Below, piece after piece: positions 1,890-62,974 of a stretch of DNA of 64,000 bases (its first letter is position 1; each line of letters opens with the position of its first letter). A program made the position numbers and the translations under genes. This stretch comes from Naegleria gruberi (lineage: Eukaryota), in the NCBI GenBank assembly GCA_000004985.1, contig GG738934.1; one strand, written 5' to 3'. The notes under the pieces are model-generated. The model did not search any database and was not told the DNA's origin. It saw nothing but the letters and a program-made list of their open reading frames with translations.

Positions 1890-1957
1890 GCGTCGACCGG
1901 GAATTGAACCCGGGTCACGGCGATGGCAACGTATTCTACCACTAAACCATCGACGCT
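1890..1957 (-). tRNA. tRNA-Gly(GCC)-like, copy 1. It has an apparent 3-nt deletion in the 5' half of the anticodon stem and is 68 nt long, not 71.
   Basis: Reverse complement reads GCGTCGA TG GTTT AGTGGTA GAAT A CG TTGCCAT CGCCG TGACC CGGGT TCAATTC CCGGG TCGACGC. The acceptor, D and T arms are canonical and the anticodon loop is TTGCCAT (GCC). The 5' anticodon stem is reduced to CG where copy 2 has CGGCG. Confidence 0.6.
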
Positions 1958-16230: not shown

Positions 16231-17400
16231 TTATTGCAATTCATTGGAGATGAAATTGTTAAAATCATCGATTTCTGTTTCCATCAAGCAATGACTTGCA
16301 TTTTCAAATAATTTGTAAACAAATTTTCCATTTTTAGAACTTTCTTGACTTTCCAAAATTGTCTTGAATTTCAAAGCTTCTTCCATTGAGTGAACATTAT
16401 CCAATTTTGCAACTATTTGAGTCACTCTACACCATTTAGTCAACTGATTCAAAATTTCCAAATGTTTCTCCATTGAAAATTGTTCATCATCTGCTTTAAA
16501 TGAAATTAAAATGTCAACAAAACAGTCAATTGAGTTTTGAATGCCAATAGGAATGGTATAGCTCAATAACTCTTCATTTGTTGGATTTCTATTGAAAGAA
16601 CTCTTTAGAATGAAACTCATGGCTGTTTTTCCCATAATCATTCGAAGTGTCATTCTAGTTATAGATTGGACAACTGAATAGCTCAACATTTCTGACAGAT
16701 TTGATTGGAAATAAGTTCCTGAAGCCATTATTAGATGGTCAATTTGAAAAAATCGTTTAGAATTAGAATCAGTTAAATAATTTTCAAAGTTTGTCCATTC
16801 CTTCTGATTGACCATCCAAATTAGGCATGGACAAAACAAGCAACTCATGGAGTGCGAGAAAATTGTCCACAAAATTTGAGTTTCGGCCACAAGAATTGAT
16901 TTGGAAATTTGATTCATGAGTTGAATGCACCAAAATGCTCGATTCCATCTAGAATGTGAAAGTCCGATGGTTCTGGAGCTAAAACCAAATCCAGGCAAAT
17001 CCATGGCCACAACCATTTCGTATTTCTCCAAGAGTGAATCGATGCAATGTCTCCATCCTGCAGTACTTGAGCCAACTCCATGGACAAGCAACACCACACG
17101 TGGATTCGTCTCTGTATTTCTATCTGATTTCCATATTCTATAGTGAAGAATAATCTTTTTCAAAGAGGAAGTCGAAACCATTCCATTCACATAATCCAAA
17201 TCAGAATCGACCCATAAAAACCTGCTGTTACTAAATGGTTTCACATAATTTTCCTCTTCCACCACTTCTGCATTGTACGGAGTGATGAGTTGTTTGTTTA
17301 ATTGTTGCCATTCGGTTGTGTTTTTGGCTTCCTCTTCATATCCGTGAATAAAGAGCGATTCCATTGTCTTGTTGTTTTTTTCTATTGTGAAAACATGCAT
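16231..17400 (-). CDS. Alpha/beta-hydrolase-fold protein, tandem paralog B.
   Basis: ..VVLLVHGVGSSTAGWRHCIDSLLEKYEMVVAMDLPGFGFSSR..; FSHSMSCLF. Collinear with paralog A along the whole length. Confidence 0.8.
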   Translation of the reverse strand: MHVFTIEKNNKTMESLFIHGYEEEAKNTTEWQQLNKQLITPYNAEVVEEENYVKPFSNSRFLWVDSDLDYVNGMVSTSSLKKIILHYRIWKSDRNTETNPRVVLLVHGVGSSTAGWRHCIDSLLEKYEMVVAMDLPGFGFSSRTIGLSHSRWNRAFWCIQLMNQISKSILVAETQILWTIFSHSMSCLFCPCLIWMVNQKEWTNFENYLTDSNSKRFFQIDHLIMASGTYFQSNLSEMLSYSVVQSITRMTLRMIMGKTAMSFILKSSFNRNPTNEELLSYTIPIGIQNSIDCFVDILISFKADDEQFSMEKHLEILNQLTKWCRVTQIVAKLDNVHSMEEALKFKTILESQESSKNGKFVYKLFENASHCLMETEIDDFNNFISNELQ

Positions 17401-31377: not shown

Positions 31378-31487
31378 GACGGTGTAGCTCAGTGGTAGAG
31401 CAATGATTCAAAAATGATTTCTGTTCAGAGATCTAACTGCAACCAACCAAACTTCGTTGGTCGAGGGTTCGACCCCCTCCATCGTCA
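31378..31487 (+). tRNA. Intron-containing tRNA gene (~40-nt intervening sequence 3' of anticodon-loop position 37). Read conventionally the anticodon is CAA, but the body is class I (short variable loop), so the isotype is unresolved. Possibly a pseudogene.
   Basis: GACGGTG TA GCTC AGTGGTA GAGC AATGA TTCAAA [AATGATTTCTGTTCAGAGATCTAACTGCAACCAACCAAAC] T TCGTT GGTC GAGGG TTCGACC CCCTC CATCGTC A. The acceptor stem is 7 bp with one G-U. D arm, T arm (TTCGACC loop) and C61 are canonical. The anticodon stem AATGA/TCGTT forms only after removing the 40-nt insert. Position 26 appears to be missing. AATGATT is tandemly repeated at the exon/intron junction. Confidence 0.5.
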
Positions 31488-33893: not shown

Positions 33894-35600
33894 TTAGAAA
33901 GTATCATCTTCAAATTTAAATGAAGAGGCTGTTCCAGGAGTTGGTGTATCCATATCGAATTGATCTCCACCACTCAAACCACTTCCAGGTGTCGATTCAT
34001 CCTCCATTACATCATTTACAAATGTGGTTGGATCCAAAACTCTTTCCTTTGATCCTTGAATCAGTGCCTTTTGATAAAATTCCTTAACATCATTCATGAA
34101 TTTATCAGCTTGAGCATTGGCTTCAATATGCTTCCATTCTTCGTCCAATCTGACAACTCCCTGCACTGTACCAGTTTGAGGATTATATGTTGTTTGAGAA
34201 TTGGAATAGGAGACGACATAGTATGGAAGAATGAGTTCATTATTGAATACAGCATGATTCATAGAGTCGGATGTTCTTAAAGAGTGATTAGCTCCCAAAC
34301 TGGAAATATCAGCATTTTGTAACTTATTCAAATCACGAACAGCACTTCTACCTGGCAAGACAAGGAAGAGCATAATCTTGGTGTTCTTGGCAATGACAGC
34401 ATTAGCTTGTGCAGCAAGATTTGTAAAGACATATGGTTTGCCACTGTTATTTCTTACACCATTCTTACAAATCCAATCGATATTATCATCACTATAATCC
34501 GAAATATCCATAAATGTTAAAATTGGCTTGACTTCAGGATATTTGGTATTCAAATCGTAGGCAAGATTATGTCTACTGGCTTCAAATTGTTTAACCAAAC
34601 CAGGTGTGACAACATATTTAACTTCGGTAATTCTAAATTGTGTCTTGGTAGTGAGCAATCTGTAAAATTCAGATTCAGCAACTCTAAAGTGAATGTGAGA
34701 AACTTCATTGGAGAAGGTTCTTTCTGGTTTGAAGGTAAATGTTCTTGGTTCATCCCTTTCCATTGTTTCATATTCTCCAGGCAAGTACATTCTATTCTTT
34801 TTGTATTCTTCCTCTTCAGTGAGAGTGCCATCATTACTGGAACTGCCAGTTTCATTCTTTCCGATCCAATCTCCCAAAGATGAAGAGGAAGATTTACTCT
34901 TGAAGGATTCTACTTGTTTGGTCAATCTATCAGTTTCCTTCTTTTCCATATCAATCATTTCTTTCATTCTCTTGATACGATCACTTAAAACATTGACATT
35001 ATTTTCATATTTTGGAAGTGTAACATCTTCAAAGAATTGAATAGGTGGATTTTCACTATTTGTACTCAAACTTTCAGTTTCAATAACTTCCTTTGCTTCC
35101 TTGATAATCTTCTTGGTTTTGATCTTTGGAATATCTGGACGACGAGGTAATTCACCTGTCAATAATCCTTCCATAGCTGCTTCTTCACGACCTTTACATC
35201 TAATCAAAGCATCTCTAATTTCTTTTGTTTTCTTATCAGGAAGTAATTGTTTCAAACTTCTAACCTTTTCTTTGTATCCTTTAACATGTTGTTGGATGTA
35301 TCCTTCTTCATCTTCTTCAATAATTTCAATTTCTCTCTCAACGAGAATTGTCTTTTTCTTTACAAAATGTCCTCTCTTTTCATTTTCTCTTTCTACACTT
35401 TCATTCAATAATCTAGTTGACAATTTTGAACGAGCAAGTGTCAAATCACGTTGTAACAAATTTTTCAACTTGGCAGATGAAACTTTCCCAAGTAATTGTT
35501 CAATTTCTTCGAGATCGGACACTGTAAAACTGTCCAATGTTTTGACGTACTTTTCCAATAGAGGATTTTCAGGATGTGATTCAACAGCTTGGGAGATCAT
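33894..35600 (-). CDS. CUE/UBA-like domain protein with coiled-coil regions and a C-terminal globular domain of unknown family.
   Basis: 568-aa ORF. ..TKEIRDALIRCKGREEAAMEGLLTGE.. resembles CUE/UBA helices. Acidic coiled-coil ..EREIEIIEEDEEG... The C-terminal ~280 aa (..FRVAESEFYRLL..IMLFLVLPGRSAVRDL..) is not recognised. Confidence 0.55.
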   Translation of the reverse strand: MISQAVESHPENPLLEKYVKTLDSFTVSDLEEIEQLLGKVSSAKLKNLLQRDLTLARSKLSTRLLNESVERENEKRGHFVKKKTILVEREIEIIEEDEEGYIQQHVKGYKEKVRSLKQLLPDKKTKEIRDALIRCKGREEAAMEGLLTGELPRRPDIPKIKTKKIIKEAKEVIETESLSTNSENPPIQFFEDVTLPKYENNVNVLSDRIKRMKEMIDMEKKETDRLTKQVESFKSKSSSSSLGDWIGKNETGSSSNDGTLTEEEEYKKNRMYLPGEYETMERDEPRTFTFKPERTFSNEVSHIHFRVAESEFYRLLTTKTQFRITEVKYVVTPGLVKQFEASRHNLAYDLNTKYPEVKPILTFMDISDYSDDNIDWICKNGVRNNSGKPYVFTNLAAQANAVIAKNTKIMLFLVLPGRSAVRDLNKLQNADISSLGANHSLRTSDSMNHAVFNNELILPYYVVSYSNSQTTYNPQTGTVQGVVRLDEEWKHIEANAQADKFMNDVKEFYQKALIQGSKERVLDPTTFVNDVMEDESTPGSGLSGGDQFDMDTPTPGTASSFKFEDDTF

Positions 35601-36090
35601 TTTATAGATTTACTACTATTATATAAAATTTAATGAATATTGGTAGAGATTTGATGATGATCGTAAAATTGATCGGAGGTTGGTTATTAAATTACAATTT
35701 GTACAAATTTTGTTGTTGTTGTTATTTTTCAATGTGGGTGATGAAAAACCTTCTAATTCGATTATTACTATTCAATATCTACTATACTCTCGAGAGGTAA
35801 AAAAAGCGTGCGGAGAAGAGTTTGAATGTTTTGACTTTTTTTTTGATGGTTAAATTTCGACTTTCCAGTGGTACAAACTTCCAAGTTCACCACAGCAATG
35901 AATTTGGTTGGTTGAATGAACGTTTCAATACTAATAACAATGAATTTGATTACAAAATCAACTTCCACGAGAAATTTGGAAAGAAAAGAAGGTCTATTAA
36001 TGGAAGAGTGCAAAGATGAAAATGTAGGATGTGATTCTTTGAGGTTTCATGCAAATTGTAGTTTTTGAAAAAAATGTTCTTTGTAATAAT

Positions 36091-37359
36091 TTATTGGTTG
36101 CTGTTAATAGAACGAGTGAGACAAAACTTGATCAAACTCAAAGTCTTTGCAGTTATCTTACTAGTGCTCAAATCACTTGGAGAATCGAAATGAGTAAGAT
36201 TAGGATAAACTTGACTAAATGTTAGACGAGCATCTCTTTGAGATAAGACATCGATCAAATTCTTGTAATCTTCTGGGTGAACATTGGCGTCAGTTGGAGA
36301 ATTGAGTGCGCAAACAAATGGCATTGTTGCTGACTTGAGTAAATGTAGTTTTGTAAACTCAATCGAAGTATAATTAAATGCAGATTGAATGAATCTTCCA
36401 CTAACATAACCTCCAATATTGTAAGCCCAGTCAATTGGATAACTACCCTTCTCAAAGAGAGGGAAGAAGTTTGCTAATGCAACTGCAGTCTTATTACTAA
36501 TATCCATATTCGAATTTGCTATTGGAATGAGTTGAGAAGTTGGATCTTCCTTTTCACATGCCTCTTTCAAAATATTCCAATTAGTAACCATTCTCAAATT
36601 TTGTTTCACTAGAAATTGTCCATAATTAAATACCAATCCATTCATTAGAAATACGTTAATGACTTGCTTCCCCATTTTCACATTACTTTCACTGTTGAAC
36701 AAATTAAATGATTTGAGAACTACATTGACACCTTCTGAATGTCCCAAAATTCCCAACTTGGAAGGATTGACATCTGGACGAGTTGACAAATATTCCAATC
36801 CACTCACTGCATCAATTGCAAAATCATCCAAGGTTACTAAATTGTAATCAAATTGCTGAGGTGCATCAGAAGGTCCTCCATACCAACAATTCTCAAAATG
36901 ATGCGTCAATTGATTCACAGTACATAATTTACACTCCTCATGTCCAGAACAATGACCTCTCTTATCATAGGTCAAAACAACCAATCCACTCTTTGCCAAT
37001 TCCATTCCTAGTTCATAAAACACTTGAAAATTCATAAAGGTCAATCCACAATTTGGATCCTTCTTTGGAAAACCCATCGTATTCAAAAAGGCATAATTCA
37101 TAGCTGATTCATTTCTATTACTAGCTCCACTTCCATGTACTAGCACAACAGCACCTCTTTGAACAGTTGTTTCGGAACCAGAAATAATTGGTTTATAGAG
37201 CGTTCCATGCATGATCAATTTTCCAGAGGGAGCATTCGATACGAAAGCAACACTTTCAGTGGCAACCTCCAATGAAGCAGCCTCTACGGATAAATTAGTA
37301 GCTACAACAAGTAGCATCAATAGAATTGATGAGAAGGAAATCAAAGATGTTTGGCGCAT
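36091..37359 (-). CDS. Secreted alpha/beta hydrolase (GHSEG nucleophile).
   Basis: Signal peptide MRQTSLISFSSILLMLLVVATNLSVEAAS. ..AVVLVHGSGASNRNESAMN.. (HG oxyanion motif). ..LGILGHSEGVNVVLKS.. (GxSxG). His near the C-terminus ..NLTHFD... Confidence 0.75.
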   Translation of the reverse strand: MRQTSLISFSSILLMLLVVATNLSVEAASLEVATESVAFVSNAPSGKLIMHGTLYKPIISGSETTVQRGAVVLVHGSGASNRNESAMNYAFLNTMGFPKKDPNCGLTFMNFQVFYELGMELAKSGLVVLTYDKRGHCSGHEECKLCTVNQLTHHFENCWYGGPSDAPQQFDYNLVTLDDFAIDAVSGLEYLSTRPDVNPSKLGILGHSEGVNVVLKSFNLFNSESNVKMGKQVINVFLMNGLVFNYGQFLVKQNLRMVTNWNILKEACEKEDPTSQLIPIANSNMDISNKTAVALANFFPLFEKGSYPIDWAYNIGGYVSGRFIQSAFNYTSIEFTKLHLLKSATMPFVCALNSPTDANVHPEDYKNLIDVLSQRDARLTFSQVYPNLTHFDSPSDLSTSKITAKTLSLIKFCLTRSINSNQ

Positions 37360-37610
37360 TTTTTTTTGTAAAATGAAATTAAGCGATTTTTATGCCGACA
37401 GAAAACCTTTAAATTCATTACAATGATTACTCAGGTTGATGCACATTTTTCGTTTCTTATGTAATTCTTGAGAGATGGTTTAACAATGGAGGAGCATAAA
37501 ATATTGATTCCTCCATACTTGTTTCCAGTAAACATCTTTCATGAGTGTATTATCGAAAATAAGCATAACTGAAAGGTCTATGTTGTGGAGCCTTAATACC
37601 TTAACAAGAA

Positions 37611-37693
37611 GCGTCGATGGTTTAGTGGTAGAATACGGCGTTGCCATCGCCGTGACCAGGGTTCAATTGTATGTTCAATTCCCGGTCGACGCA
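37611..37693 (+). pseudogene. tRNA-Gly(GCC)-like, copy 2. It carries a 12-nt tandem duplication in the T-loop and a C->A change in the T-stem, so it is a probable tRNA pseudogene. It is inverted relative to copy 1, about 35.7 kb away.
   Basis: GCGTCGA TG GTTT AGTGGTA GAAT A CGGCG TTGCCAT CGCCG TGACC AGGGT TCAATTGTATG TTCAATT CCCGG TCGACGC A. The anticodon arm is intact here. The T-arm reads CAGGG..ttcaattgtatg + ttcaattcccgg, where copy 1 has CCGGG TTCAATT CCCGG. The 5' flank gccttaataccttaacaagaa matches copy 1's flank gccttaatatcttaataagaa. Confidence 0.6.
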
Positions 37694-37905
37694 ATCATTT
37701 CTTTTTAATTTTCCTCTTTTTAATATTCTCTTTTACTTCTGTTTACCATAAAAACTATACATTTATTCCTATCTATCATCCAAAAATTGCAGCCTATAAC
37801 TCAATATTAATCGAGAATTAGTCCTCAGGTTGACCCCATTTTTTTCTTTTCTTTTAAGTTTTTAAGTTGCATTTTATTTTATTGACATAAATTAGGAATT
37901 GGAAA

Positions 37906-40900
37906 TCAAGCAGTTTCTTCTTGAATTGTTGGGGAAAGTGAATCGTCATGTTTTGTTCTACTAAACGAAAGACAATCACTCGGATTAATGACATAGGTTT
38001 GCATGGTTCCCTTTCCTTTCACTTCAATGCGTCTTTCCTCAAAGGCTGAATATTTTTCCTTTAGTTTCGAATAAACTACATCAGTAACTTGAATATGACC
38101 TGTTGGACACAAGTATTCCATTCTTGAAGCCGTCTATTTAAAATATTAGCATTACAATTCAGAATTTCAATAACTTACATTCACAGCATCTCCCCAAATA
38201 TCATAGGCATATTTCAATACTCCGCAAACTCCCGCAACCAAAGGTCCTGCATTAATTCCTGCCCTTAATCCAATATTCCAATTACGATGTTCATTTCTCA
38301 ATTGGAAATCATTAAATATTTCGAATAGATTCAAAGCAAATTCGAAAACCCTCAATTCATGTTCTTCATCTTTCATTTCATTCGCTTTTAGTCCGCCAGT
38401 GCAAAAATATTTCGATTGAATTGTTTTGATTTTTTCCAAATTGAATCTGACACATGCCTCATCGAATTGCATGACAAGATCATTAAGGTTTTGAACTAGG
38501 TCAGTGGCACTTAATCCTAAATCTAATAATCCAACTATGTCAGAAAAAATACATGTCACATGATCGAACTTGTCAGCAATCAAATTTTCACCACCTTCTT
38601 GTAATCTCTTTGCAACACTATAAGGCATGATATTCATCAATAAAGCTTCACTCTTCTTCTTCTGTTCTGCTAATTCCTTAACTTGCATTTTAATTTCTGT
38701 CAAATCTCTGATAAAACAAGTAATGACATTTCTACTATCTGTAACCGAAACACAAATTCTCATTTCAACTGAAACAGTTGCTAAATTCTTTCTAACACCA
38801 ACCAATTCCAATGTTTCTGAATAGCCAGAGCTTGCCATACTCATCTGAGTAATGATTGGTTGTAAACTTGCTTCTGAACTCTTATCGAATAGTTTCACCA
38901 ATGGGAAACCTATCATTTGATCTGATCTGAACCCAAATAACTTTTCAGATGCATTATTGAAAATATCGATGGTTCCATTTGCAGAACAGACAATGGCACT
39001 TGTTAAGGCAGCTTCAAGAATGGCCCTTTCTTTCGGTACCTTTCGTTTTGATTTCTCTTTTGGATCAGTTTTAAGAATGTGATGGAAAATGTAATTTCTC
39101 AAATCGTCATTCGAATCCAACACTTCCCAATGGAGATAATTCAACATTTTCCTCAACACATAATTTTCATTTCGAACATTCTTCATTGTCATGAAATTCA
39201 ACATGTAGCAAAGTAATAATAATGGAATTCCCACAACTGTTCCAATTATGGTAAAGTATGGCTGTGAATTAAAGTAGGCATAGTACAAAATTTCGTTCAG
39301 AGAACCGAATGTTCCATATAAATCATAAGCAGTCAAATACAGAAATTCTGGAATTTTGTTCAAATCTGAAACTGTTCCATTGTAAACTCGAAGAATTTCA
39401 TTTAGCTTTACAGCTTGAGCTCTAAAGAAACCAACCTTATCATCCATTGAATTACAAGAGAAAGTTGAGCAATTTGAAGATGTCTTTCCAAGTAAATTGT
39501 CAAGATTTGAATTAACTCCGCTCAAGCTCAAATAACCATCTACAGAACTTCCATATCTGGTAGCTGTCCAATGAGTATCGAAGGAAGTAATGTGATCAAG
39601 AAGAAGTTTGGATCGTTCTTCTCTGAATGTCTGGTTATCGAGATGTAATACCATTTGGAAGATGTCATATCTTATTTGTTGTTCATAACTCATGGCATAT
39701 GACATTTCTCTTAATTTGACAACACCATAAGTGTGAGCTTGAAAATCTGTAAAAACATCAGCTATAATCATAGATAATGCAACACAAGTAACCAAAATTG
39801 AAAAGATATCCAAGAATATTAACTTGGTGACAGATGTGAAAAGTGACTTGGTTGAACTTTTGACATCTTGTTCTTCGCCAACAACCTTTTCCATAGTAGT
39901 GATGAGAAATCTTGACTCTTCTTGTGGTACTTGATGAAACAATCTCAAAATTAACTTTCTATTGTAAATAAATCTTAATAGGAATAATGAGTGAACTATC
40001 GAATAAACCAAAAAGGAAAAGAATATAAAAACCACAACAATTATAAAGTCATTTGTAGTGCTATTCAAATCACTATATAAATATTTGTAAATATCTTCAA
40101 AAAACTGTGCAAATCCATTCGACATTCTCTCCACATTATTCCCTAAAAAGGTAAATTGTGAATTATCCAATGAAATCTTATCACTCGACTTGGTCTGATT
40201 AATTAAATCAACAAGTGTCAAGAGTAACATTTTGTTTCTCTTTGCAATCCAATTAGTTGACGTATACTTCCAACTCCCGCTCTCATCATCCACTAAAATC
40301 AACTTATCCTCCGCATTGTAATACTCAACCACAGTATCATCATATTGAGTGGAAAATAATTCATTCAAATTCTCCAATTTAACTGCCTTACTCGAGCCGA
40401 GTGTGTTGATTTTGGATCTGAATGTTGGAATGCTCCAGATTGAGGTTGTGTTTAAGGGTCCGACTTGTCCGTTCAAATTGTTAATGTTAATTAAGGCTGA
40501 GAAGGGAAGTGCAGTCAAAACCGAAACACTATCGAATAGATCGAGAGAGGTAAGTTTGAAAAGAAGTGAAAGACCAATGATTAAGACCATTAAGATGAAT
40601 AACAATTGAAATCCACCACTCGTATTCAAAAAATAGAAGAGTTTCTCATTTTCGTCTGGTTTCGAAATGGCATTCGTAAATATTTCCTGTTGCTTGTCTA
40701 AAACAGTTTCAAAATTTTCTTCTTCCTCTTCACCCATCATTGAAATGGAATCAAAATTATCCAACATTAAATCATCAGTTGCGAATAGATTATTCTTCGT
40801 TGGCGAAAGTGCAAGAAACTGCATTGGTGGTTTCTCACTTTCCTTAATTGGTTTCTCTTCTTCTTCGTCTTCGTTTCCCATGGCCATGAAATTGAATTCT

Positions 40901-42957
40901 CTCTGATAGTGTTTGTATAATTGTTGGATAGTTTCGTCTTCTTCATGATCGAGAATGAGATTTTGGAATGCAACATCCAATTCATACGAAAGTGATTCAA
41001 TCTTTTGTAAAATGTGGTCGACATTGGATTTGGACGAAACTAATTTCCAGAATTCGATAATCATAATTCTGAGTTTCTTCATACGGAGATTTAATCTTTC
41101 AATTACTGTTTCACCAACAGTTCCTTTGATTTTCATGTTAATTGCCAAACTTTTTTCCAATTCTGCCATTCGCATATAAATGGCGAATTGTTGACGAAAG
41201 TTTGGTTTTCGTTGTTCTGCCTTTTTGAGGAAAGTGCTGGCTTGGAAATAATTTGGAGGTTTGCAAATATCTTTCGAATAGAGAGCCATGTTGATGAGAC
41301 AATTACAACTAATCGAATCTGTGGTACGAAACAAGATTCGTACAAAATCAAAGATGATATCTTGTTGTTCTTCAGTTCCTTTCAATGCAAATTTGATAAA
41401 ATTGGCCAAAGCTGGTAAATTTGAATGATTAAAGTTCAATTCATGAGTTGATTGTGAGCTAGTCACAACAGATGCAATTTGCTGACCTTTCGTCATGATT
41501 CGTCTAGTATAAATATCCGTCACAATGAAACCAATTACAAATCCCACAATTCCCAAAACAATCGGTGCAAAAGTAAGTCCCAAACCAAGATCCCAATCAT
41601 CATTCTTATTTACCAACGTTGAAACCAATGCCGAAATTCCAACTCCAAGTCTTGCAAATCCAATTCCACCATAAACGGAATTTGTTGACCTGTGAAAAAA
41701 AGGCAAGTCCTTAAACAGTAAAACAATGAAAACCAACGCCATAATAATGAACATGATTGGACGAATGAAATTAATCATGTGAGGGAAAGTTCCAGCCACA
41801 ACATTATACAATTGATTGGAGCCAATAATGAAAGCCATCAGAAATGGTGTGTCCATCACAAAAGCTGACTTGACTTTGACATCTGTATCACAAAATAACA
41901 ACACAGTATTCATGGTAATCAATATTTGAATAATGCAAAATAACCATGACACTATTCCCAAAACAATATTCGAAACTCCCAAACATTCCACTGTTGGAAA
42001 CCTTCTCAAAACATAAGTTGCATCATAAGCTCCACTCAGAGTAACTGTCTTTTCATAATCACAATCGAAAAATGCATGAATTAAGGCAAAGGTCACTGGC
42101 ATTGAACAGAGCGTGATGGAAGTAAAGGCAATTCGTCCAGCTGTTCGAATTCTTTTCCAATAGGAAGTACCATAAACTAGTGAACGATAGGTCATGTAAA
42201 TGATTGCTATTGCTATACTTTCCAATAATAGCAATGCAGCTGCTAGTCCTATATATGCCTCATATGGAAGGTATTGGAATCCAAACGTTCTAGGAATGAC
42301 AAGAACATTCATAATGTATTTACCATATTCCCCCCACCCAAAATCCAATGAACATCCCAAAACGAGAGATTGAATCATTATGAAAATATGTAAAGTTATT
42401 GAAATGAATCTGTGAAGTGGATTTTCCAACTTGACAGCTTGAATAAACATCAAATACTTGTCGATATATTCATTCATAACAGTTGTATTTTCATCATCTT
42501 CATCTTCTGGATGAGGAGTTTCATCTTTTGCATCTTCATCCCAAAAATCTGTTGATTTCGACTTGATTTCCTTGAGCTTTGAAGAGTTGGTTGATGGTCT
42601 TTGAATACTTCTAATGCTTCGGGAACTTCTTGCAGTCCTTATTGAGGCTGTACTTTGAGTTGAAACCAACTTGTGAGGTGATTGAATATTCTGATTCGAA
42701 TTGTTTAGTCTAGGTTTCGAATGACTTTGAATAGAATCTAGAGGCGTAATCCTAGAAGTTGATTTACGTTTCTCCAACAACAATGACCTAACAGAAGCTT
42801 GAGATTTTTGCTTTTTAGAATTTTGAGCTAAGAACGGAACATTACTTGAGGGGGTTGGTGATTTTGGTGAGGTTGTTACATTGAGATGATGATTTGTATG
42901 AGTTGGGATTATCAGCACTGCTGCTGAATCTTCGTTACAAGAGTTAGAAGAAGACAT
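37906..42957 (-). CDS. Multi-TM receptor-type class III nucleotidyl cyclase, C2-like subunit: about 6 TM, cytoplasmic coiled-coil region, TM/extracytoplasmic loop/TM, PAS, cyclase domain. Two exons: 42957..38179 and 38133..37906. Intron 38134..38178.
   Basis: PAS: ILEAALTSAIVCSANGTIDIFNNASEKLFGFRSDQMIGFPLVKLF... Cyclase: ..LLMNIMPYSVAKRLQEGGENLIADKFDHVTCIFSDIVGLL..EKIKTIQSKYFCTGGL..GLRAGINAGPLVAGVCGVLKYAYDIWGDAVN|TASRMEYLCPTGHIQVTD..IEVKGKGTMQTY. The first metal Asp (FSDIVG), Lys, Asp (YDIWG), Asn (AVN) and Arg (ASR) are present. The second metal Asp motif IGDAY reads IQSKY. Confidence 0.85.
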
Positions 42958-43282: not shown

Positions 43283-46200
43283 ATGNNNNNNNNNNNNNNN
43301 NNNNNNNNNNNNNNNNNNNNNNNNNNNNNNNNNNNATTTGAGAGCTCTCTTCAAACTAAAGTATTTGATAAAGAAATTGATGAAGAGCTTGTAAAATATG
43401 CTACATCCAAAAGGAATAGAATGTCTGCAAGTACTTTGATAATGAGTGCCATTTATACTTCAACCTTTCATGATAATCCTCAATTTTCTATTAATACTTT
43501 GAAATATGCGTTAAGACAAGCATCATTCGTTCAGAAAATAACCATCAACTCCAAGATTAAGGAAATTGAAGTTAGACACGGCTATCAAATGACAACCGAG
43601 TTTAGTACTATGCTGCTACAAGCTCAAAAGGTGGAAAATAGATTGCTAATGTTCAGAAAATTGTTTTGGCAATACTTTGTTAGCAATGAAGACGATCAAA
43701 ACAAAATTAACGCTATCGTTCATGCCATGTACAAAACTTTTGAGGAAGGAAAGGTAATTTATGACCTGCTAGTTGTTTCCAATCCTGAAAATCAAGTTCT
43801 AGCAAAAAAGAGAGCGTTATATTTTGATAATTTCTTATTTAGAAAGGTAATGACCAGTAAGAAGTCATCACCTTCTTTGAATAAGGAAGCTACTGGTGAG
43901 GATAGCAAATCGACAATTTCGAACAGGTCTACACAGAATCCAGAGGTAACAAAGAGCCAACAGGTACAAGTGAATGATCAAGCCCACGAATACACTGAAA
44001 AGGTGTACAGAGAGGCAATTAATACCAAGTTTACTATGAAACTAACCTTCCTATTTTTGATTTATGATGCCATTGCTCTGCTAGCTATTTCAGTTGGAAT
44101 AATTATTGGTGTAATCTCTTCTCTTCATGGAGATGAACTTGTAAGAATCTTACACGCCTGTCAATTCACTAATGTTCCGTATTCTCTATTGAGGGAAGTT
44201 AGATTGGCTTATTATTTTAGAAATGATCCTTCCACTTATAATTTTAACAATTTTTATGAAAGAATTACTGCTTTAAAGCACCTTACAGAAGATGGCAAAA
44301 TTAAAAGCTATTCACATCTTTCTGGAGATGCTTTAAACTATTACTCTGGGAATAACTTCCCAGTCATGGTACCCACAATTTCTGCTGATAATAGAGTATC
44401 CTATAAGTGGCAAAATGTATCAATTGCCTCCTTGATATCCGATATCGAAGTAGTTGTCAACAAGTTAAATTCATGGAATATTAACAGCTTCCAAAATTTA
44501 GAGAGCAATTATGAATATTTGTACCTCTCATTTAACCATGAATTAACATCTGGGTATATGGACCAGTATTGCCAGTCTCTCACAAATGGAGTGGTAAATC
44601 ACCCATACGATGAGGCAGTAATAGTCAACTCTGTTTTGTTAGGTCTACTTGTAGTAGCCACTGTTATTGTAATCGTATTACTAGCAACACTTAATATCAA
44701 AGAAAAGATAATCAGTCTCTTTTCAAAAATACCAAAAGATATTGTGGGAATTCTGAATATTGAGTTGGAAAAGCAAACTGATAAGAAGTGCGACAATAGC
44801 TCATACTCTGAAATATTTACATTCAAAGTGAAATTGTTGATGGTTCTTTTGGTAATATTTCTAGTTTGTGTTACTTCCTTATCAGTAACATTTTATGAAG
44901 CTTACAGTTTAGATTTCAGTTCTAGAAGCTCAACTTTAAAGCTTGGTTACATGTCTTCCCTACTGATAAATCTTCATAAGGATCAATTAATACTAGAAAA
45001 CAAGATTATTAATGGATCTAGCAATAGTTTGGGTTCTTCCAACAATGCTATTGAACGTTCATGGATCGTTTTTAGATATGGTAACCATAACTATCCAACA
45101 ACTTTACATTCTATATCAAGCAATGCCAAGTTCTTACTTGAAGGTAATAGTAGTTGTGGTACAATTAATTGCACAGGTCTTGATTCATTATTAGAGAAAT
45201 ATGTAATGAATATGGACTCTATTGCCTTCAGTACTAAATTGTCCAATTCCACTCTTGTAATGTTTTCCACCCTACTCTCTGCAATTTCAGCTAAGATACA
45301 TTCTCTTGGAGATGATTTAGTAGATCCAATAGTGGGTGTTCAAACCAAATTGGCTCTTGGTGTTTTCTCTGGAGCTTTTGTTTTGATATTGATTATTGCA
45401 GGATTACACTACGCAGAGCTGCGAGAATATGTTGATGAATGTAATCACACAAGAAGTATGCTTAGTATGATACCTTTTGATATAATTTCGCANNNNNNNN
45501 NNNNNNNNNNNNNNNNNNNNNNNNNNNNNNNNNNNNNNNNNNATATTTGGTGAAGGTCAAAACTCTGTTTCTTTAAAGGCAGTACTAGATAAGTTATTGG
45601 TTGCTACCGAATCTGCTGGAGAACATTTGGAATTGGAAGCAGTCAGAAAGAATGGCAGTTCTCTCTCAGTTGGTGTGTCCGTATCTGTTTTCCACCATGA
45701 AAATAAGAATCTAATTACAATGCTATTGAGGGATATTACTTTCGAAAAAAAGGTATGTTTTTGTCACCTAATTCTAATAATTGAATCATAATAATATTAT
45801 TATAATATTCCATTAAATAATCAATAGCACAAATTATTGCTGGCAGAGGAGAGGAAGAAAAGTGATAATCTACTATTGAACATTCTACCAGAACGTATTG
45901 CTCAAAGATTGAAAGCTGGTGAGACAAGTATCTCTGAAAAGTTTGATGATTGTACATGTCTGTTCAGTGATATGGTTGGTTTCACCAAAATGTCATCAGG
46001 TCTCACTGCCTATGAATTGGTGCAACTTCTCAATTCAATTATTAATGGTTTCGATTCTTATATTACCCCTCTCGGTTTGGAGAAGATCAAGACGATTGGA
46101 GATGCTTACTTTTGTGTAGGAGGACTGAATGGACAGACAGATCACCCGGAAAAAGTAATTACATTTGCCATTCACATGCTATCTGTCATTAATAACTACA

Positions 46201-47942
46201 ATACCAAGAACAATACCAAACTCAACATCAGGTAGGTTTTTCTCAATTTGATTTCATATCTAATTAATCATTAGAGTTGGAATCCACACTGGTCCAGTAA
46301 TTGCTGGTTGTATTGGCCAACAGAAATTTGCATATGATTTGTGGGGTGAAACTCTAATTATTGCCAATTGTACGTATTATTATAATTTTTGAAATTAAAT
46401 TATCATTCGTGTAAAGTGATGGAATCTAAGGGAGTACCAGGAAGAATTCAAGCATCAAGAAAGACCTATGAAAGAGTATATGATATTTTCGAATTTGAGG
46501 AAATCAAGGGAATTGAACTAAAACCATCAGTGCTCGTAAATACCTACTTACTCAAAGAGAAGCATCATGACATTAATACAAACTTTAGTGATGGATTTGA
46601 TAAAATGTTTGCAGGTCTCAATATGTTCAGTCCAAAAACCTATAACTTTTCCAAGATCATTCAAGACCGCTCTCTCATTCAAGGATTCAAGGATTTCTTC
46701 ACAGACTCTGAAAAGGTGAATATCATTAACTTTTACGAGTTGTGTCAAGAGTATGTGAGCTCTCCAATTCCAAGTCTTCGTTATAATATGGCAGAGAATA
46801 TGGTAAGAGATTACCTTGAAGAAACTGCTCCCAAAAGATTGCAATTAAAGTATGTGAAGAATGCTTTTGGCCCATTTCAAATGAAATTCAAGGACTGTAA
46901 TGATGATAATTGTCCTTCTGATTTATTTGAGAACTTCCAAAACCTATGTCTCAAAGTAAGTATTATTATTGTTGTTGTTCATCCAATCATTACAATTACT
47001 GTTGTACAATATTATAATATAACAATAATCCTTTTAAAGGCATTACGAGAAGAATTTCCAGCATTCATCAAGTCGAAGAATTTCAATAAGTTCTTGGAGC
47101 AAAAGAAACGTAACCCAGAACAGCTGAGACCTTATGTGAAGGATGAAAATGATGATGATGATGAGGATGATGAGAAGGCCTTCTTCAAGTTTTGTGAAAA
47201 GTGTGGAACTGAAATTATCAATTTGGAAAACCACCGTTTCAATGATTATGAATTTAACAATAGAAAGGAACTCTTGTTAGAGTTGAATCAGTGGAGTATT
47301 CACTTTGAGGGTAGTGGTGGTAAGACCTATATCAGTCCTGAGGTTGCTCACAACCATTTGAGTAATAGTAGAAGGCACGTTCAACTCAAGTATGTGTACG
47401 ATATGAATTGCAAACACAAGGACCTTTTCAATGCTTGGATTGATGAAAAATCCCTCTCAACACGAGTAGCACAATTAACCTCCTCCAAACATGTTGATTC
47501 TGTACAGGTTGGAAAGTACATGCACGTGGTTTGTCATGAAAACTTCAAGATGCCCTTCCCACGCTCCAAGAGAGAATTTGTTCATGCCTATTCTTGTTCT
47601 TACAATCCAAGTGAAGAAGTCTACATGTGTATATCACGTAGTATTAACAATCCGAGAGCACCTCCATCAAGACAAATTCGTGGAGAAATCAAGACTGCCT
47701 TCATGGTCAAAAAGTTGTCTGAAACCACTTGTAGATATTACTATTCTGTTATTATTGATTGCATGGGAATGCTCTCACCAGAGTATTATACCAAGAATAT
47801 TTACAAGGAAATTCAACAAGATTGTTTCCATGTCAATTTGGTTAAATTTGTTGATGAATTTGCAAAGGAAAATCGACAACCTTCCGGACCATTGGTAAAT
47901 TCACTCAATTATTATTTGGAACATCATGATAGTAGTAAATAA
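43283..47942 (+). CDS. Multi-TM receptor-type class III adenylyl-cyclase-like protein, C1-like subunit, with a C-terminal RGS domain and a further C-terminal domain. Exons: ..45752, 45828..46231, 46275..46369, 46417..46955, 47040..47942. Two 50-N gaps inside exon 1. The true 5' end is uncertain.
   Basis: TM segments: [80 protein letters not shown]: ..[43 protein letters not shown]. Cyclase: ..[56 protein letters not shown]|[31 protein letters not shown]|[14 protein letters not shown]..; both metal Asp plus Lys/Asp are present, and the Asn/Arg positions read I and L. RGS: [64 protein letters not shown]|[15 protein letters not shown]. Introns have GT..AG with consistent phases. Confidence 0.8.
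43286..43335. other. 50-N assembly gap inside the cyclase gene
   Basis: Exactly 50 N; conventional unknown-size gap. Confidence 0.99.
45493..45542. other. 50-N assembly gap inside the cyclase gene
   Basis: Exactly 50 N. Confidence 0.99.
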
Positions 47943-48368: not shown

Positions 48369-50543
48369 TTGCTTTACAAAAAACCTTTCGAATTTTTCAA
48401 AATGGTCTTTGGAAACAATAATTCATCATCACCGAATGATATTTCACCTAGGAATAGACGATTCGTATTTCAACAAGCTACTACAACACACCATCATCAT
48501 AATCATCATCATCACCATCATGGTGGTCATCATCACGAACAAGAAGATGATTCATTGGTTGCGAGTGGAGAATTGGTGATGAGACAGAATGGATTTTTTG
48601 GTAGATGGAAAAAGTAAGTAAAATCTCCTTTACATGTGATTAGTTTACTTTCGTTCATTCACATGACTATTTGAAATGTTCATTTCTTTTGGTGTTGTCC
48701 AACTCTTAGATTCTTCTTTACACTAACAAAGGATGGAGCTTTTGTTAAATTCAAAACCTCTGATTTTCACACACCCATGCAAACATACTTTCTAATATAT
48801 TCACACAATTTAGTTTGTGACGGGCACAAAAACGACAAGTACAATATGGTGACAACAGAGGCTGCATTTGAATCACCCACACTTCCTCAACCAGCTAATA
48901 ATTTATGTGGAAAATCGAATAGTATGCTCTTGTTTGTGGAAAATTCAGTGGCAGAAAAGGAAACTCTTGTTGTGGTGGCTCCTTCTGCTGATCAGTACAA
49001 TATGTGGATGAGAGCTTTTGAAATTGTATTTGAAAATGCAAAATATGAAATGACAGTTAGTACCATGATTGATGGTACATCCTCATCATCAGATTCTGGA
49101 TCATCTTTCACAAGTCATGAATCATATCATTCAGATAAGCAAATTACATTTGATATTTACAAGAAGGGATTGAAGATTTCAAATTTAATTGATGCCATGA
49201 CAGATCCTACTGTCATTGCAAATGATAAGGGAATAATTATAGGTGTAAATGGTGCAGCAGAGGCAATGTTTGAGTGGAAACATATTGAACTGATAGGAGA
49301 GAATGTCAAAGTTCTCATGCCAACAGTATTTGCCAAATATCATGACGAGTTTATCAATAATTACAAAAAGACGAGAAAGCAGAGAATGATTGGAAAGCCA
49401 AGAAATGTACTAGGAAAGACAAAAAATGGAAGAACATTCACTGTAGAGATTTCAGTGGGAGAAATTTCAGGACGAATGTCATCAGATATGATTCATTCAT
49501 CGGAACATGAGAATATAATTGGAGATTTGTCATTTATGGCTGTGTTTCGAATTCCTTTCGGTTCTAGTTTCGGATCTTCTTCAGATTTATCGTGGGACAG
49601 CTCGAGTATGAGTTCCAGTGAATCATTCAATGAGAAGGAGAAGGAGGACGAACACGATTTTAACACCATGATCGAGGCGAGTGTAAAGAATTTTTCACAT
49701 CACAACACAGCACCTCTACCACCTAGGAATTTGAGATTAAACATCTCCAGTTCAAAATCATCCTCAGCAGAGGATGTCTTTAACGATCCAGCTAGAAGTT
49801 ATAGTGATGACGATAGTGATTCTTCGAGTGACAGCGATGTAGAACAGTATATGATTTCACCACCTCGTGGTGGACCAACACATTCAGCACTGTTCAATTG
49901 CATTTCATATTCACCATCCAGTTTACAAGAGAGAAAGGAAAAGATTTACAAACGAGTGGAAAAGATTGAAAAGAGGAGCAGAACTTTGAAAGATAACGAA
50001 TTCAACAAGCTGAAATACAAATTTCTACTATTGGAAAAGCAGATTAAAATCATGGAAGAGGAAAATGAAAAATTATTCACTCAATTAGAAACACAACGAG
50101 AATCAATTGAATTATTGGAGAGAGAAAGCCGAGTAATGTTATCATCACCAGAAGTTTCAGTATTTATTGATATGGCAAACAGCCCTTCATCCTATGAATC
50201 AATTTTGAAGTGGGCAACTAAGAATGGTAAACTAAATCATGTCAGATGTTGTAAAAGTATAATTGATTTCAGTGCCAAATATTCCAAATCAATGAAATCA
50301 GCATCCTATTCACTCCACAAACAACACTTCAAGATGGAGAAGAATGCAAGAGAAATATTCGATGAATTCTTCTCTTCCCACGCCAAACATCCAGTCATTC
50401 TCTCGGAAGAATTGGCCGATACCCTATTATCACATTTGGACACTCCAACGTCTCACATGTTTACAATGATACTTTACGAAATCATAACGACTAGTATATC
50501 TTCTGAACAATTATGGAATAACGTATTTTCTGGACATATTTGA
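48369..50543 (+). CDS. PH-domain / PAS-domain / RGS-like-domain signalling protein with a poly-His tract and Ser/Asp-rich linker. Two exons: 48369..48613 and 48710..50543.
   Basis: Intron 48614..48709 (GTAAGT..TTAG, phase 2) splits the PH signature ..GELVMRQNGFFGRWKK|(K)FFFTLTKDGAFVKFKTSDF... HHHHNHHHHHHGGHHH tract. PAS: ..MTDPTVIANDKGIIIGVNGAAEAMFEWKHIELIGENVKVLMPTVFAKYHDEFINNYKKTRKQ..GKTKNGRTFTVEISVGEI. C-terminal RGS-like half: ..AREIFDEFFSSHAKHPVILSEELADTLL..HMFTMILYEIITTSISSEQLWNNVF. Confidence 0.75.
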
Positions 50544-60037: not shown

Positions 60038-62974
60038 NNNNNNNNNNNNNNNNNNNNNNNNNNNNNNNNNNNNNNNNNNNNNNNNNNNNNNNNNNNNNNN
60101 NNNNNNNNNNNNNNNNNNNNNNNNNNNNNNNNNNNNNNNNNNNNNNNNNNNNNNNNNNNNNNNNNNNNNNNNNNNNNNNNNNNNNNNNNNNNNNNNNNNN
60201 NNNNNNNNNNNNNNNNNNNNNNNNNNNNNNNNNNNNNNNNNNNNNNNNNNNNNNNNNNNNNNNNNNNNNNNNNNNNNNNNNNNNNNNNNNNNNNNNNNNN
60301 NNNNNNNNNNNNNNNNNNNNNNNNNNNNNNNNNNNNNNNNNNNNNNNNNNNNNNNNNNNNNNNNNNNNNNNNNNNNNNNNNNNNNNNNNNNNNNNNNNNN
60401 NNNNNNNNNNNNNNNNNNNNNNNNNNNNNNNNNNNNNNNNNNNNNNNNNNNNNNNNNNNNNNNNNNNNNNNNNNNNNNNNNNNNNNNNNNNNNNNNNNNN
60501 NNNNNNNNNNNNNNNNNNNNNNNNNNNNNNNNNNNNNNNNNNNNNNNNNNNNNNNNNNNNNNNNNNNNNNNNNNNNNNNNNNNNNNNNNNNNNNNNNNNN
60601 NNNNNNNNNNNNNNNNNNNNNNNNNNNNNNNNNNNNNNNNNNNNNNNNNNNNNNNNNNNNNNNNNNNNNNNNNNNNNNNNNNNNNNNNNNNNNNNNNNNN
60701 NNNNNNNNNNNNNNNNNNNNNNNNNNNNNNNNNNNNNNNNNNNNNNNNNNNNNNNNNNNNNNNNNNNNNNNNNNNNNNNNNNNNNNNNNNNNNNNNNNNN
60801 NNNNNNNNNNNNNNNNNNNNNNNNNNNNNNNNNNNNNNNNNNNNNNNNNNNNNNNNNNNNNNNNNNNNNNNNNNNNNNNNNNNNNNNNNNNNNNNNNNNN
60901 NNNNNNNNNNNNNNNNNNNNNNNNNNNNNNNNNNNNNNNNNNNNNNNNNNNNNNNNNNNNNNNNNNNNNNNNNNNNNNNNNNNNNNNNNNNNNNNNNNNN
61001 NNNNNNNNNNNNNNNNNNNNNNNNNNNNNNNNNNNNNNNNNNNNNNNNNNNNNNNNNNNNNNNNNNNNNNNNNNNNNNNNNNNNNNNNNNNNNNNNNNNN
61101 NNNNNNNNNNNNNNNNNNNNNNNNNNNNNNNNNNNNNNNNNNNNNNNNNNNNNNNNNNNNNNNNNNNNNNNNNNNNNNNNNNNNNNNNNNNNNNNNNNNN
61201 NNNNNNNNNNNNNNNNNNNNNNNNNNNNNNNNNNNNNNNNNNNNNNNNNNNNNNNNNNNNNNNNNNNNNNNNNNNNNNNNNNNNNNNNNNNNNNNNNNNN
61301 NNNNNNNNNNNNNNNNNNNNNNNNNNNNNNNNNNNNNNNNNNNNNNNNNNNNNNNNNNNNNNNNNNNNNNNNNNNNNNNNNNNNNNNNNNNNNNNNNNNN
61401 NNNNNNNNNNNNNNNNNNNNNNNNNNNNNNNNNNNNNNNNNNNNNNNNNNNNNNNNNNNNNNNNNNNNNNNNNNNNNNNNNNNNNNNNNNNNNNNNNNNN
61501 NNNNNNNNNNNNNNNNNNNNNNNNNNNNNNNNNNNNNNNNNNNNNNNNNNNNNNNNNNNNNNNNNNNNNNNNNNNNNNNNNNNNNNNNNNNNNNNNNNNN
61601 NNNNNNNNNNNNNNNNNNNNNNNNNNNNNNNNNNNNNNNNNNNNNNNNNNNNNNNNNNNNNNNNNNNNNNNNNNNNNNNNNNNNNNNNNNNNNNNNNNNN
61701 NNNNNNNNNNNNNNNNNNNNNNNNNNNNNNNNNNNNNNNNNNNNNNNNNNNNNNNNNNNNNNNNNNNNNNNNNNNNNNNNNNNNNNNNNNNNNNNNNNNN
61801 NNNNNNNNNNNNNNNNNNNNNNNNNNNNNNNNNNNNNNNNNNNNNNNNNNNNNNNNNNNNNNNNNNNNNNNNNNNNNNNNNNNNNNNNNNNNNNNNNNNN
61901 NNNNNNNNNNNNNNNNNNNNNNNNNNNNNNNNNNNNNNNNNNNNNNNNNNNNNNNNNNNNNNNNNNNNNNNNNNNNNNNNNNNNNNNNNNNNNNNNNNNN
62001 NNNNNNNNNNNNNNNNNNNNNNNNNNNNNNNNNNNNNNNNNNNNNNNNNNNNNNNNNNNNNNNNNNNNNNNNNNNNNNNNNNNNNNNNNNNNNNNNNNNN
62101 NNNNNNNNNNNNNNNNNNNNNNNNNNNNNNNNNNNNNNNNNNNNNNNNNNNNNNNNNNNNNNNNNNNNNNNNNNNNNNNNNNNNNNNNNNNNNNNNNNNN
62201 NNNNNNNNNNNNNNNNNNNNNNNNNNNNNNNNNNNNNNNNNNNNNNNNNNNNNNNNNNNNNNNNNNNNNNNNNNNNNNNNNNNNNNNNNNNNNNNNNNNN
62301 NNNNNNNNNNNNNNNNNNNNNNNNNNNNNNNNNNNNNNNNNNNNNNNNNNNNNNNNNNNNNNNNNNNNNNNNNNNNNNNNNNNNNNNNNNNNNNNNNNNN
62401 NNNNNNNNNNNNNNNNNNNNNNNNNNNNNNNNNNNNNNNNNNNNNNNNNNNNNNNNNNNNNNNNNNNNNNNNNNNNNNNNNNNNNNNNNNNNNNNNNNNN
62501 NNNNNNNNNNNNNNNNNNNNNNNNNNNNNNNNNNNNNNNNNNNNNNNNNNNNNNNNNNNNNNNNNNNNNNNNNNNNNNNNNNNNNNNNNNNNNNNNNNNN
62601 NNNNNNNNNNNNNNNNNNNNNNNNNNNNNNNNNNNNNNNNNNNNNNNNNNNNNNNNNNNNNNNNNNNNNNNNNNNNNNNNNNNNNNNNNNNNNNNNNNNN
62701 NNNNNNNNNNNNNNNNNNNNNNNNNNNNNNNNNNNNNNNNNNNNNNNNNNNNNNNNNNNNNNNNNNNNNNNNNNNNNNNNNNNNNNNNNNNNNNNNNNNN
62801 NNNNNNNNNNNNNNNNNNNNNNNNNNNNNNNNNNNNNNNNNNNNNNNNNNNNNNNNNNNNNNNNNNNNNNNNNNNNNNNNNNNNNNNNNNNNNNNNNNNN
62901 NNNNNNNNNNNNNNNNNNNNNNNNNNNNNNNNNNNNNNNNNNNNNNNNNNNNNNNNNNNNNNNNNNNNNNNNNN
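60038..62974. other. 2937-N assembly gap in the subtelomere
   Basis: Continuous N run. ORFs reported across it are artifacts. Confidence 0.99.

Follow-up and report, generated by a model that had tools for sequence, protein, structure and literature searches.

Gene A, on the plus strand of a 64,000-nucleotide stretch of Naegleria gruberi contig GG738934.1 (the window), encodes a nucleotide cyclase subunit in which the catalytic domain and an RGS-fold domain lie in one polypeptide. From its N-terminus, the chain comprises a membrane region of four predicted helices, a PAS domain, a C1-like cyclase domain of class III, and the RGS domain; an acidic linker, which bears a CxxC knuckle, then leads to a START (StAR-related lipid-transfer) domain. 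We hold with moderate confidence that gene A specifies a receptor-type adenylyl-cyclase subunit that needs a partner of the C2 kind, and that its RGS-START portion is a docking or regulatory module. An earlier note on this DNA had placed a cyclase, an RGS domain, and a further C-terminal domain of about 280 residues in one receptor-like chain. That architecture is confirmed by the domain matches and by exon 46417-46955, which the cyclase and RGS domains share; START is the right name for the C-terminal domain, as judged from Pfam matches of homologues and from structure matches, and four predicted membrane helices together with the PAS domain bear out the receptor-like character.

At the level of sequence, the cyclase-RGS fusion is confirmed as real, independent of any splice prediction, and not a gene-model artefact, because a single exon carries the final part of the cyclase and the first part of the RGS domain. 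Within exon 46417-46955, one open frame holds the codons for the last ~45 cyclase residues (to ...TYLL) and for two thirds of the RGS domain, counted from its start, which excludes, as far as sequence can show, a transcript end between the two domains, one of the outcomes that the earlier note had said would overturn its proposal. The segment discussed in that note (46417-47942) proves to be exactly the last two exons of a longer gene. All four introns recognized in gene A (75, 43, 47, and 84 nt) are of the GT..AG type and keep the frame, and the coding sequence spliced from the exons after the second assembly gap runs for 2151 nt (716 residues) with no internal stop. In total, ~1430 codons of gene A are open, with neither stop nor frameshift, and the breaks in the gene are assembly gaps, not mutations. 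A profile search of the spliced protein with hidden Markov models (HMMs) found RGS, Guanylate_cyc, and half of a PAS domain in Pfam. The 28-residue insert that would result from reading through intron 46956-47039 is missing from all homologues aligned there; P0007, a protein prediction sourced from ENA that is 99% identical, does read through it. If retained, this intron would add 28 mostly hydrophobic residues within a region aligned to an RGS4 block. Part of the 5' end of gene A is probably hidden in the gap at 43286-43335, because full-length relatives are longer at the N-terminus (by up to ~570 residues in N. fowleri P0160). We found no N. gruberi gene model covering the RGS-START part of gene A among public proteins, a lack that is probably due to the two 50-N gaps.

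The visible part of exon 1 encodes four predicted membrane helices in a Kyte-Doolittle scan (44069-44125, 44633-44689, 44834-44890, and 45350-45406); they enclose two loops of ~150-170 residues each, which would be extracytoplasmic. In the same exon, a weak TPR_TmcB match points to a TmcB-like TPR region, and the corresponding match is significant in the N. fowleri homologue P0015. Full PAS_9 matches are present in homologues P0004, P0014, and P0015.

The Pfam Guanylate_cyc profile matches residues 106-283 of the spliced gene A protein (E 1.9e-49, profile positions 3-182 of 183), and adenylyl cyclases in the PDB match the domain with E-values down to 9e-62. The best PDB match is the C1 domain of adenylyl cyclase AC9, at 116.5 bits against 92.8 for C2, with the motif ANLME in common. 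We read eight catalytic positions from the HMM alignment, namely the first metal-binding Asp, the adenine-specifying Lys, the second metal-binding Asp, the triphosphate-binding Arg, the adenine-specifying Asp, the transition-state Asn, the transition-state Arg, and the Lys of the KGKG motif, which contacts the gamma-phosphate. In this order, about 20 related full-length cyclases have the complete set D-K-D-R-D-N-R-K, the prevailing state among related Naegleria cyclases, and gene A has D-K-D-R-D-I-L-S; animal C1 domains have D-S-D-R-D-N-L-(gap) or D-K-D-R-D-T-H-(gap), and animal C2 domains have S-K-A-R-D-N-R-K. Gene A thus keeps both metal-binding Asp residues and the adenine-specifying Lys and Asp, and it has lost three others, the KGKG Lys and the Asn and Arg of the transition state, so that it departs from the residue set of a self-sufficient, homodimer-type class III cyclase. 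Loss of the transition-state Arg is common to its orthogroup. Because these three residues are missing, the gene A cyclase alone would probably be a poor enzyme in need of a partner subunit. The claim of the earlier note that this protein makes cyclic AMP (cAMP) is therefore to be qualified: the domain is of class III with the Lys and Asp of ATP-using enzymes, but gene A by itself would probably make little cAMP.

The neighbouring gene B, a paralogous membrane PAS-cyclase, is transcribed divergently from gene A, the two starts lying head-to-head, ~330 bp and a gap apart. Its best PDB match is the C2 domain of AC9 (107.6 bits against 66.1 for C1), and at the eight positions it reads D-K-S-R-D-N-R-K, the second metal-binding Asp being replaced by Ser and the Asn, Arg, and Lys being kept. 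The pair therefore shows the complementary catalytic defects expected of C1/C2-type subunits, and because gene A is without the Asn, Arg, and Lys and gene B without one metal-binding Asp, the residues suggest that the two proteins form an obligate heterodimer. Gene A would be active only when paired with a C2-kind subunit that supplies these three residues, and gene B is the obvious candidate. Such a dimer is predicted to combine a complete, ATP-specific site with a dead one, as do mammalian C1/C2 and soluble guanylyl cyclase alpha/beta, and the Lys and Asp specificity residues of both genes indicate ATP as the putative substrate. Gene A resembles C1 in the shared class III fold, in having ANLME for ASRME, and in the missing KGKG Lys, and gene B resembles C2. 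In contrast to the mammalian enzymes, however, A and B are separate, divergent genes and not the halves of a single 12-helix chain, and each encodes a membrane region and a PAS domain of its own; moreover, gene A keeps the adenine-specifying Lys and Asp and has an RGS-START tail, and the sequence allows neither a G-alpha-s site nor a forskolin site to be inferred. The public N. gruberi model of gene B (P0171, 2426 residues) is a three-gene chimera over 33894-42957 (minus strand), joining gene B to a peptidase_S9-like open reading frame (ORF) at 36091-37359 and to another ORF at 33894-35600; it skips the true last exon of gene B (TASRME...) and crosses the tRNA gene at 37611-37693.

That the segment after the cyclase is an RGS domain, as the earlier note had proposed from block alignments, is borne out by Pfam RGS (PF00615), which matches residues 313-434 of the spliced protein over the full profile (positions 1-117 of 117) at 36.5 bits, against a cut-off of 23.9 (E 7e-9). 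A first family profile (from alignment A2) compared with the PDB was swamped by ankyrin matches from members with ankyrin repeats, and the comparison was redone with RGS-only segments. The resulting profile matched 41 RGS-fold sequences in the PDB, the best being the RGS-homology domain of GRK2/GRK3 (5.5e-7), ahead of RGS proteins of the R4 class; the RGS-fold domains of axin and SNX25 are also among the sequence and structure matches. Single-sequence phmmer searches of the PDB gave marginal RGS matches (E 0.12-0.45), which served for residue alignment and not as a measure of significance. The RGS-homology domain of GRK2 binds G-alpha-q and is not known to act as a GTPase-activating protein (GAP).

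To compare contacts with G-alpha, the family was aligned with human RGS4 and with the RGS domain of a CHASE4-HAMP-RGS gene in the window (28500-31319). The contact residues of RGS4 (S85, E87, N88, N128, D163, S164, and R167) were placed on an RGS4 sequence whose blocks agree with those quoted in the earlier note. At these positions the CHASE4-HAMP-RGS protein has S/E/N/N/D/T/R and the RGS domain of gene A has K/N/I/Q/E/gap or E/A. Conservation of the contact residues, a check that the earlier note had proposed, is thus found in the canonical RGS domain of the window and not in gene A, which does not have the contact set of a GAP-competent, R4-like domain. In close homologues, position 128 is usually occupied by Lys and position 88 by Met or Ile. 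Asn128, Glu87, and Asp163 are still present in distant stand-alone RGS-START proteins (P0024, P0018, P0019, and P0030), and so the loss of contacts arose inside the Naegleria clade. With the contacts replaced and GRK2/GRK3 as the best PDB match, the residues do not support the claim that this domain accelerates GTP hydrolysis by G-alpha. Docking a partner is a likelier role for the domain than switching that partner off, because the residues that normally accelerate hydrolysis are missing. The most invariant stretch of the domain, KNAFGPF (A149, G151, P152, F153, and K156), lies in the alpha5-alpha6 loop that carries Asn128 in canonical domains, and because it replaces that loop it points to a binding surface that would be retained but chemically different.

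The linker that follows the RGS domain contains an invariant CxxC (FCEKCGTE in gene A, 47193-47204), and an invariant 10-residue motif (HNH) lies at ~47349-47378 (plus strand) in the N-terminal part of the START region. Both motifs are found only in the Naegleria clade of cyclase- and ankyrin-RGS-START proteins, occurring together in 11 of 75 RGS-START relatives. Weak Zn_Ribbon_1 matches at the linker are seen in paralogues, and the CxxC may, together with the HNH motif, make up a zinc site. A four-Cys zinc site composed of a C-x4-C in the RGS domain and the CxxC of the linker was rejected as a general feature, the first Cys being Ala in P0001. Homologues at 40-57% identity to the C-terminal region match Pfam START at 1.2e-13 to 4.6e-6, although gene A itself has no direct match in the START profile search that the earlier note had suggested. 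The region shows the START helix-grip fold with its long C-terminal helix, and its nearest structures are STARD10, CERT, and StarD13. Coordinates are collected in Table 1.

Table 1. Features of gene A and of its divergent neighbour, gene B, in window coordinates.
Feature	Position	Strand	Remarks
Gene A	43283-47942	+	two assembly gaps inside; splices cleanly
Candidate start codon of gene A	43283..43285	+	ATG abutting N run 43286-43335; inferred
Exon 1, visible part	43336..45492	+	one open frame, 718 codons, gap to gap
Assembly gap, 50 N	45493..45542	.	hides ~73 residues, the first half of PAS; size from paralogue P0014
Exons 3' of second gap	45543-45752, 45828-46231, 46275-46369, 46417-46955, 47040-47942	+	ends in TAA
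PAS, C-terminal half	45579..45740	+	exon 45543-45752; PAS_9, residues 13-66, profile 51-102/103, E 8.9e-4
Class III cyclase catalytic domain	45933..46556	+	over exons 45828-46231, 46275-46369, and 46417-...; C1-like
RGS-fold domain	46644..47093	+	split by 84-nt intron 46956-47039
Intron within RGS domain	46956..47039	+	84 nt, GT..AG, in frame, stop-free
Acidic linker and conserved FCxKCGTE CxxC knuckle	47136..47204	+	C52, C55, G56, T57, and E58 invariant in alignment A2
START domain	47214..47936	+	
Gene B, paralogous membrane PAS-cyclase	37906..42957	-	C2-like; exon 42957-38179, 45-nt intron, exon 38133-37906; PAS_9 and Guanylate_cyc

A HMMER scan of 1.84 billion representative proteins gave 419 relatives at E ≤ 0.001, the best 150 of which were classed with local HMMs. 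An RGS domain followed by START occurs in 67 of these 150, and the order cyclase-RGS-START is confined among them to the Naegleria proteins P0004, P0014, and P0160/P0015 and to P0001 and P0003, fragments from uncultured Naegleria-like contigs. P0004 (C9374_007395, N. lovaniensis) has the order PAS-cyclase-RGS-START, with a sub-threshold Pfam RGS match of 18 bits, and P0160/P0015 is FDP41_000489 of N. fowleri. The N. gruberi paralogue P0014 (NAEGRDRAFT_45297, 64-72% identical) is represented by a model that skips ~100 residues including the start of the RGS domain: it jumps from '...WGETLTIAN' to 'SDILAFYLHAIEY', so that the last part of the cyclase is missing along with the first third of the RGS domain, which Pfam therefore does not find there. 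The proteins are thus already public, with the RGS domain either below threshold or cut out by gene-model errors, so that the architecture is hard to see; two public gene models hide the RGS domain. Ankyrin-RGS-START proteins occur in N. gruberi, N. fowleri, and N. lovaniensis. Because the RGS-START unit is also found alone in protists and behind ankyrin repeats, it is a mobile cassette, joined to a membrane PAS-cyclase, as found here, only in Naegleria.

On the reading that we prefer, the RGS-START tail would lie at the membrane and serve there for regulation or docking. The RGS-fold domain would bind its partner through the remodelled, highly conserved KNAFGPF loop, in the manner of the RGS-homology domains of GRK2 and the RGS-RhoGEFs and not of a canonical GAP; the likeliest partner would be an activated G-alpha, one of many in Naegleria, or possibly another protein, and START would add a lipid input or a membrane tether.

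Several observations weigh against parts of this proposal. The RGS fold receives weak support from an AlphaFold model of the 507-residue unspliced ORF, which has low confidence (predicted local distance difference test score 55), and the C-terminal region of gene A gives no direct match to Pfam START (PF01852), even at E-values up to 10. The G-alpha-q-binding residues of helix alpha5 in GRK2 (R106, F109, D110, M114, and L117) are replaced in the window by E, V, R, E, and A; because they are not conserved either, nothing positively marks G-alpha as the partner of the RGS domain. Mutational work on RGS16 reportedly suggests, moreover, that Gln at the position of Asn128 might still allow some binding of G-alpha. 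As for the heterodimer, it is complementary residues and adjacency alone that speak for a pairing of A with B. No C2-like neighbour stands head-to-head with the related gene at its N. lovaniensis locus, where the nearby cyclase is fully canonical, and our search for a gene B orthologue recovered only the chimeric JGI model and animal cyclases. Finally, a second cyclase-RGS-START subfamily (N. fowleri FDP41_000489 and P0003) has a fully canonical cyclase, and the RGS-START cassette is therefore not tied to C1-like subunits.

Ranked by our confidence, the alternatives run from a scaffold, through a working GAP, to an artefact, and even the foremost of these seems unlikely to us: that the RGS-START region has nothing to do with G-alpha and is a lipid-regulated targeting or scaffold module, comparable to axin and the sorting nexins, that positions the cyclase at a particular membrane or membrane contact site or gates it there. 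Such a module would account for the absence of the G-alpha contact residues and for the axin and SNX25 folds among the matches; START domains bind lipids, those of STARD10, CERT, and StarD13 being the nearest structures, and ankyrin repeats, behind which the cassette also occurs, are a protein-interaction module. However, the retention of Asn128, Glu87, and Asp163 in the distant stand-alone proteins suggests that the ancestral cassette faced G-alpha, and the loop that has taken the place of the Asn128 loop is better conserved than any other part of the domain, which fits a protein partner retained at that surface.

We also consider doubtful, and place after the scaffold, the reading of the earlier note, in which the RGS domain is a working GAP for Naegleria G-alpha and the cyclase makes cAMP while G-protein signalling is being terminated. 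The full-length, above-threshold Pfam match is consistent with this idea, the exchange of Asn128 for Gln is conservative, and D163 has become Glu. Co-evolved contacts are conceivable given that Naegleria G-alpha subunits are many and divergent (13 in N. fowleri), and in N. fowleri RGS domains, one of them in an effector, do work as GAPs by way of the canonical interface (PMC9283941). Nevertheless, four of the seven contacts are changed non-conservatively (S85K, N88I, R167A, and S164 to Glu or a gap), most close homologues have Lys rather than Gln at position 128, and the N. lovaniensis orthologue reaches only 18 bits on Pfam RGS. Moreover, the canonical RGS domain of the window keeps the set, so that the G-alpha subunits of this organism have not made these residues dispensable, and the nearest structural relative by sequence profile is the non-GAP domain of GRK2.

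Largely ruled out is the idea that the cyclase and RGS-START regions are separate genes or that gene A is a pseudogene on a poor assembly, for although ATG 46419 opens a 507-codon ORF at which predictions P0007 (ENA) and P0001 (Logan) begin, and although two N gaps, the lack of a public model over RGS-START, and the lost catalytic residues might favour it, the 45 residues with which that ORF opens form the final strands of the cyclase and complete a contiguous Pfam match (3-182/183) only when spliced, the four in-frame GT..AG introns and ~1430 open codons argue against decay, annotated N. fowleri and N. lovaniensis proteins have these domains in one chain, and the catalytic losses are common to the orthogroup and mirror C1 domains.

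The docking module that we favour for gene A has parallels in several known systems. GRK2/GRK3 and the RGS-RhoGEFs (p115/LARG, and those of Naegleria and Entamoeba) likewise fuse an RGS fold to a signalling output enzyme, although the output of gene A is a nucleotide cyclase rather than a kinase or a guanine-nucleotide exchange factor. In the RGS-RhoGEF of N. fowleri, a putative effector, the RGS domain is a docking site for G-alpha-2 and G-alpha-3 (PMC9283941); that protein uses a canonical GAP interface, whereas the RGS domain of gene A is without one. Stand-alone protist RGS-START proteins have the same RGS-linker-START cassette, but their distant forms keep Asn128 and are without the CxxC and HNH motifs; the Naegleria ankyrin-RGS-START proteins share with gene A the KNAFGPF loop, the CxxC knuckle, and the 10-residue HNH motif. 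Gene A differs from both groups in that the cassette sits after a membrane PAS-cyclase. The RhoGAP-START proteins of the DLC family (STARD8/12/13) also place a GTPase regulator before a C-terminal START domain, and StarD13 is among the top structure matches; however, RhoGAP is not an RGS fold and no cyclase is present, so that the analogy is one of layout only. The seven-transmembrane (7TM) RGS receptors, plant AtRGS1 and Naegleria 7TM RGS1-4, resemble gene A as receptor-like membrane proteins with a cytoplasmic RGS domain in an organism with a large G-alpha repertoire (PMC9283941, PMC3971589), but they have seven helices, a canonical GAP-competent RGS domain, and no catalytic output domain.

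The window itself is AT-rich (~34% G+C) and eukaryotic in character, with many genes and short GT..AG introns. Two of its ORFs match N. gruberi proteins XP_002668980.1 and XP_002668982.1, from a 97.6-kb scaffold, exactly; on the strength of these matches the DNA is N. gruberi nuclear DNA, and a prokaryotic or viral origin was ruled out. It contains four runs of N (1-332, 43286-43335, 45493-45542, and 60038-62974), two of which fall inside gene A. Three RGS-type genes and two cyclases lie inside 22 kb. One of the former is the CHASE4-HAMP-RGS gene on the plus strand, a 940-residue ORF with CHASE4 (2e-8), HAMP (9e-6), and a canonical RGS domain (67 bits) that keeps the G-alpha contacts of RGS4, except for a conservative change of Ser164 to Thr; as CHASE4 and HAMP are bacterial-type sensor modules, this appears to be a receptor-like RGS protein whose signalling chassis is of prokaryotic type. 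The next gene downstream of gene A (48369-50543, plus strand) encodes a protein that is His-rich at its N-terminus and contains a PAS domain (3.7e-10); its RGS match stays below threshold (19 bits, E 1.8e-3). Three tRNA genes are present, at 31378-31487 (+), 1889-1956 (-), and 37611-37693 (+), the first of which, at 110 nt against a 71-position model, probably contains an intron. Adjoining ORFs of 379 and 389 residues on the minus strand (14928-16067 and 16231-17400) have alpha/beta-hydrolase profile matches in the same region, which suggests a tandem duplication, and a MACPF/perforin-domain protein is encoded at 2296-3879.

A combination of RGS with START or ankyrin domains in protists was noted by de Mendoza et al. 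2014 (PMC3971589). Naegleria species have roughly a dozen G-alpha subunits, some 80 non-7TM RGS proteins, and between 80 and 100 cyclases, the counts for N. fowleri being 13, 79, and 80, respectively (Bosch et al. 2022, PMC9283941); the latter paper mentions no RGS-bearing cyclase, and START is missing from the domain key of its Figure 1. We found no description of a cyclase-RGS fusion in the full-text literature within reach, although there may be a prior mention in Anantharaman et al. 2011. The locus also exposes annotation errors, in that gene A is unmodelled, the model of its paralogue skips part of the RGS domain, and that of gene B is chimeric.

Routes from G proteins to effectors are largely unknown outside animals and fungi, and for Naegleria there is no demonstrated connection from G-alpha to a cyclase. 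A cyclase subunit with a built-in RGS fold is a concrete candidate for such a link, and the pathogen N. fowleri has a relative in FDP41_000489. Neighbouring genes of complementary, C1- and C2-like character would, moreover, provide a simple two-gene model of the route from homodimeric to pseudo-heterodimeric cyclases. Taken further, and here we are tentative, Naegleria might possess an independent wiring from G proteins to cAMP, unrelated to the interface of animal G-alpha-s with C2, in which a two-gene, C1/C2-like receptor cyclase would have a G-alpha docking domain and a START lipid sensor on its C1-like subunit, such that an activated G-alpha and a membrane lipid act directly on the catalytic dimer. 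The architecture would gain much in interest if the heterodimer and the link to G-alpha were both borne out.

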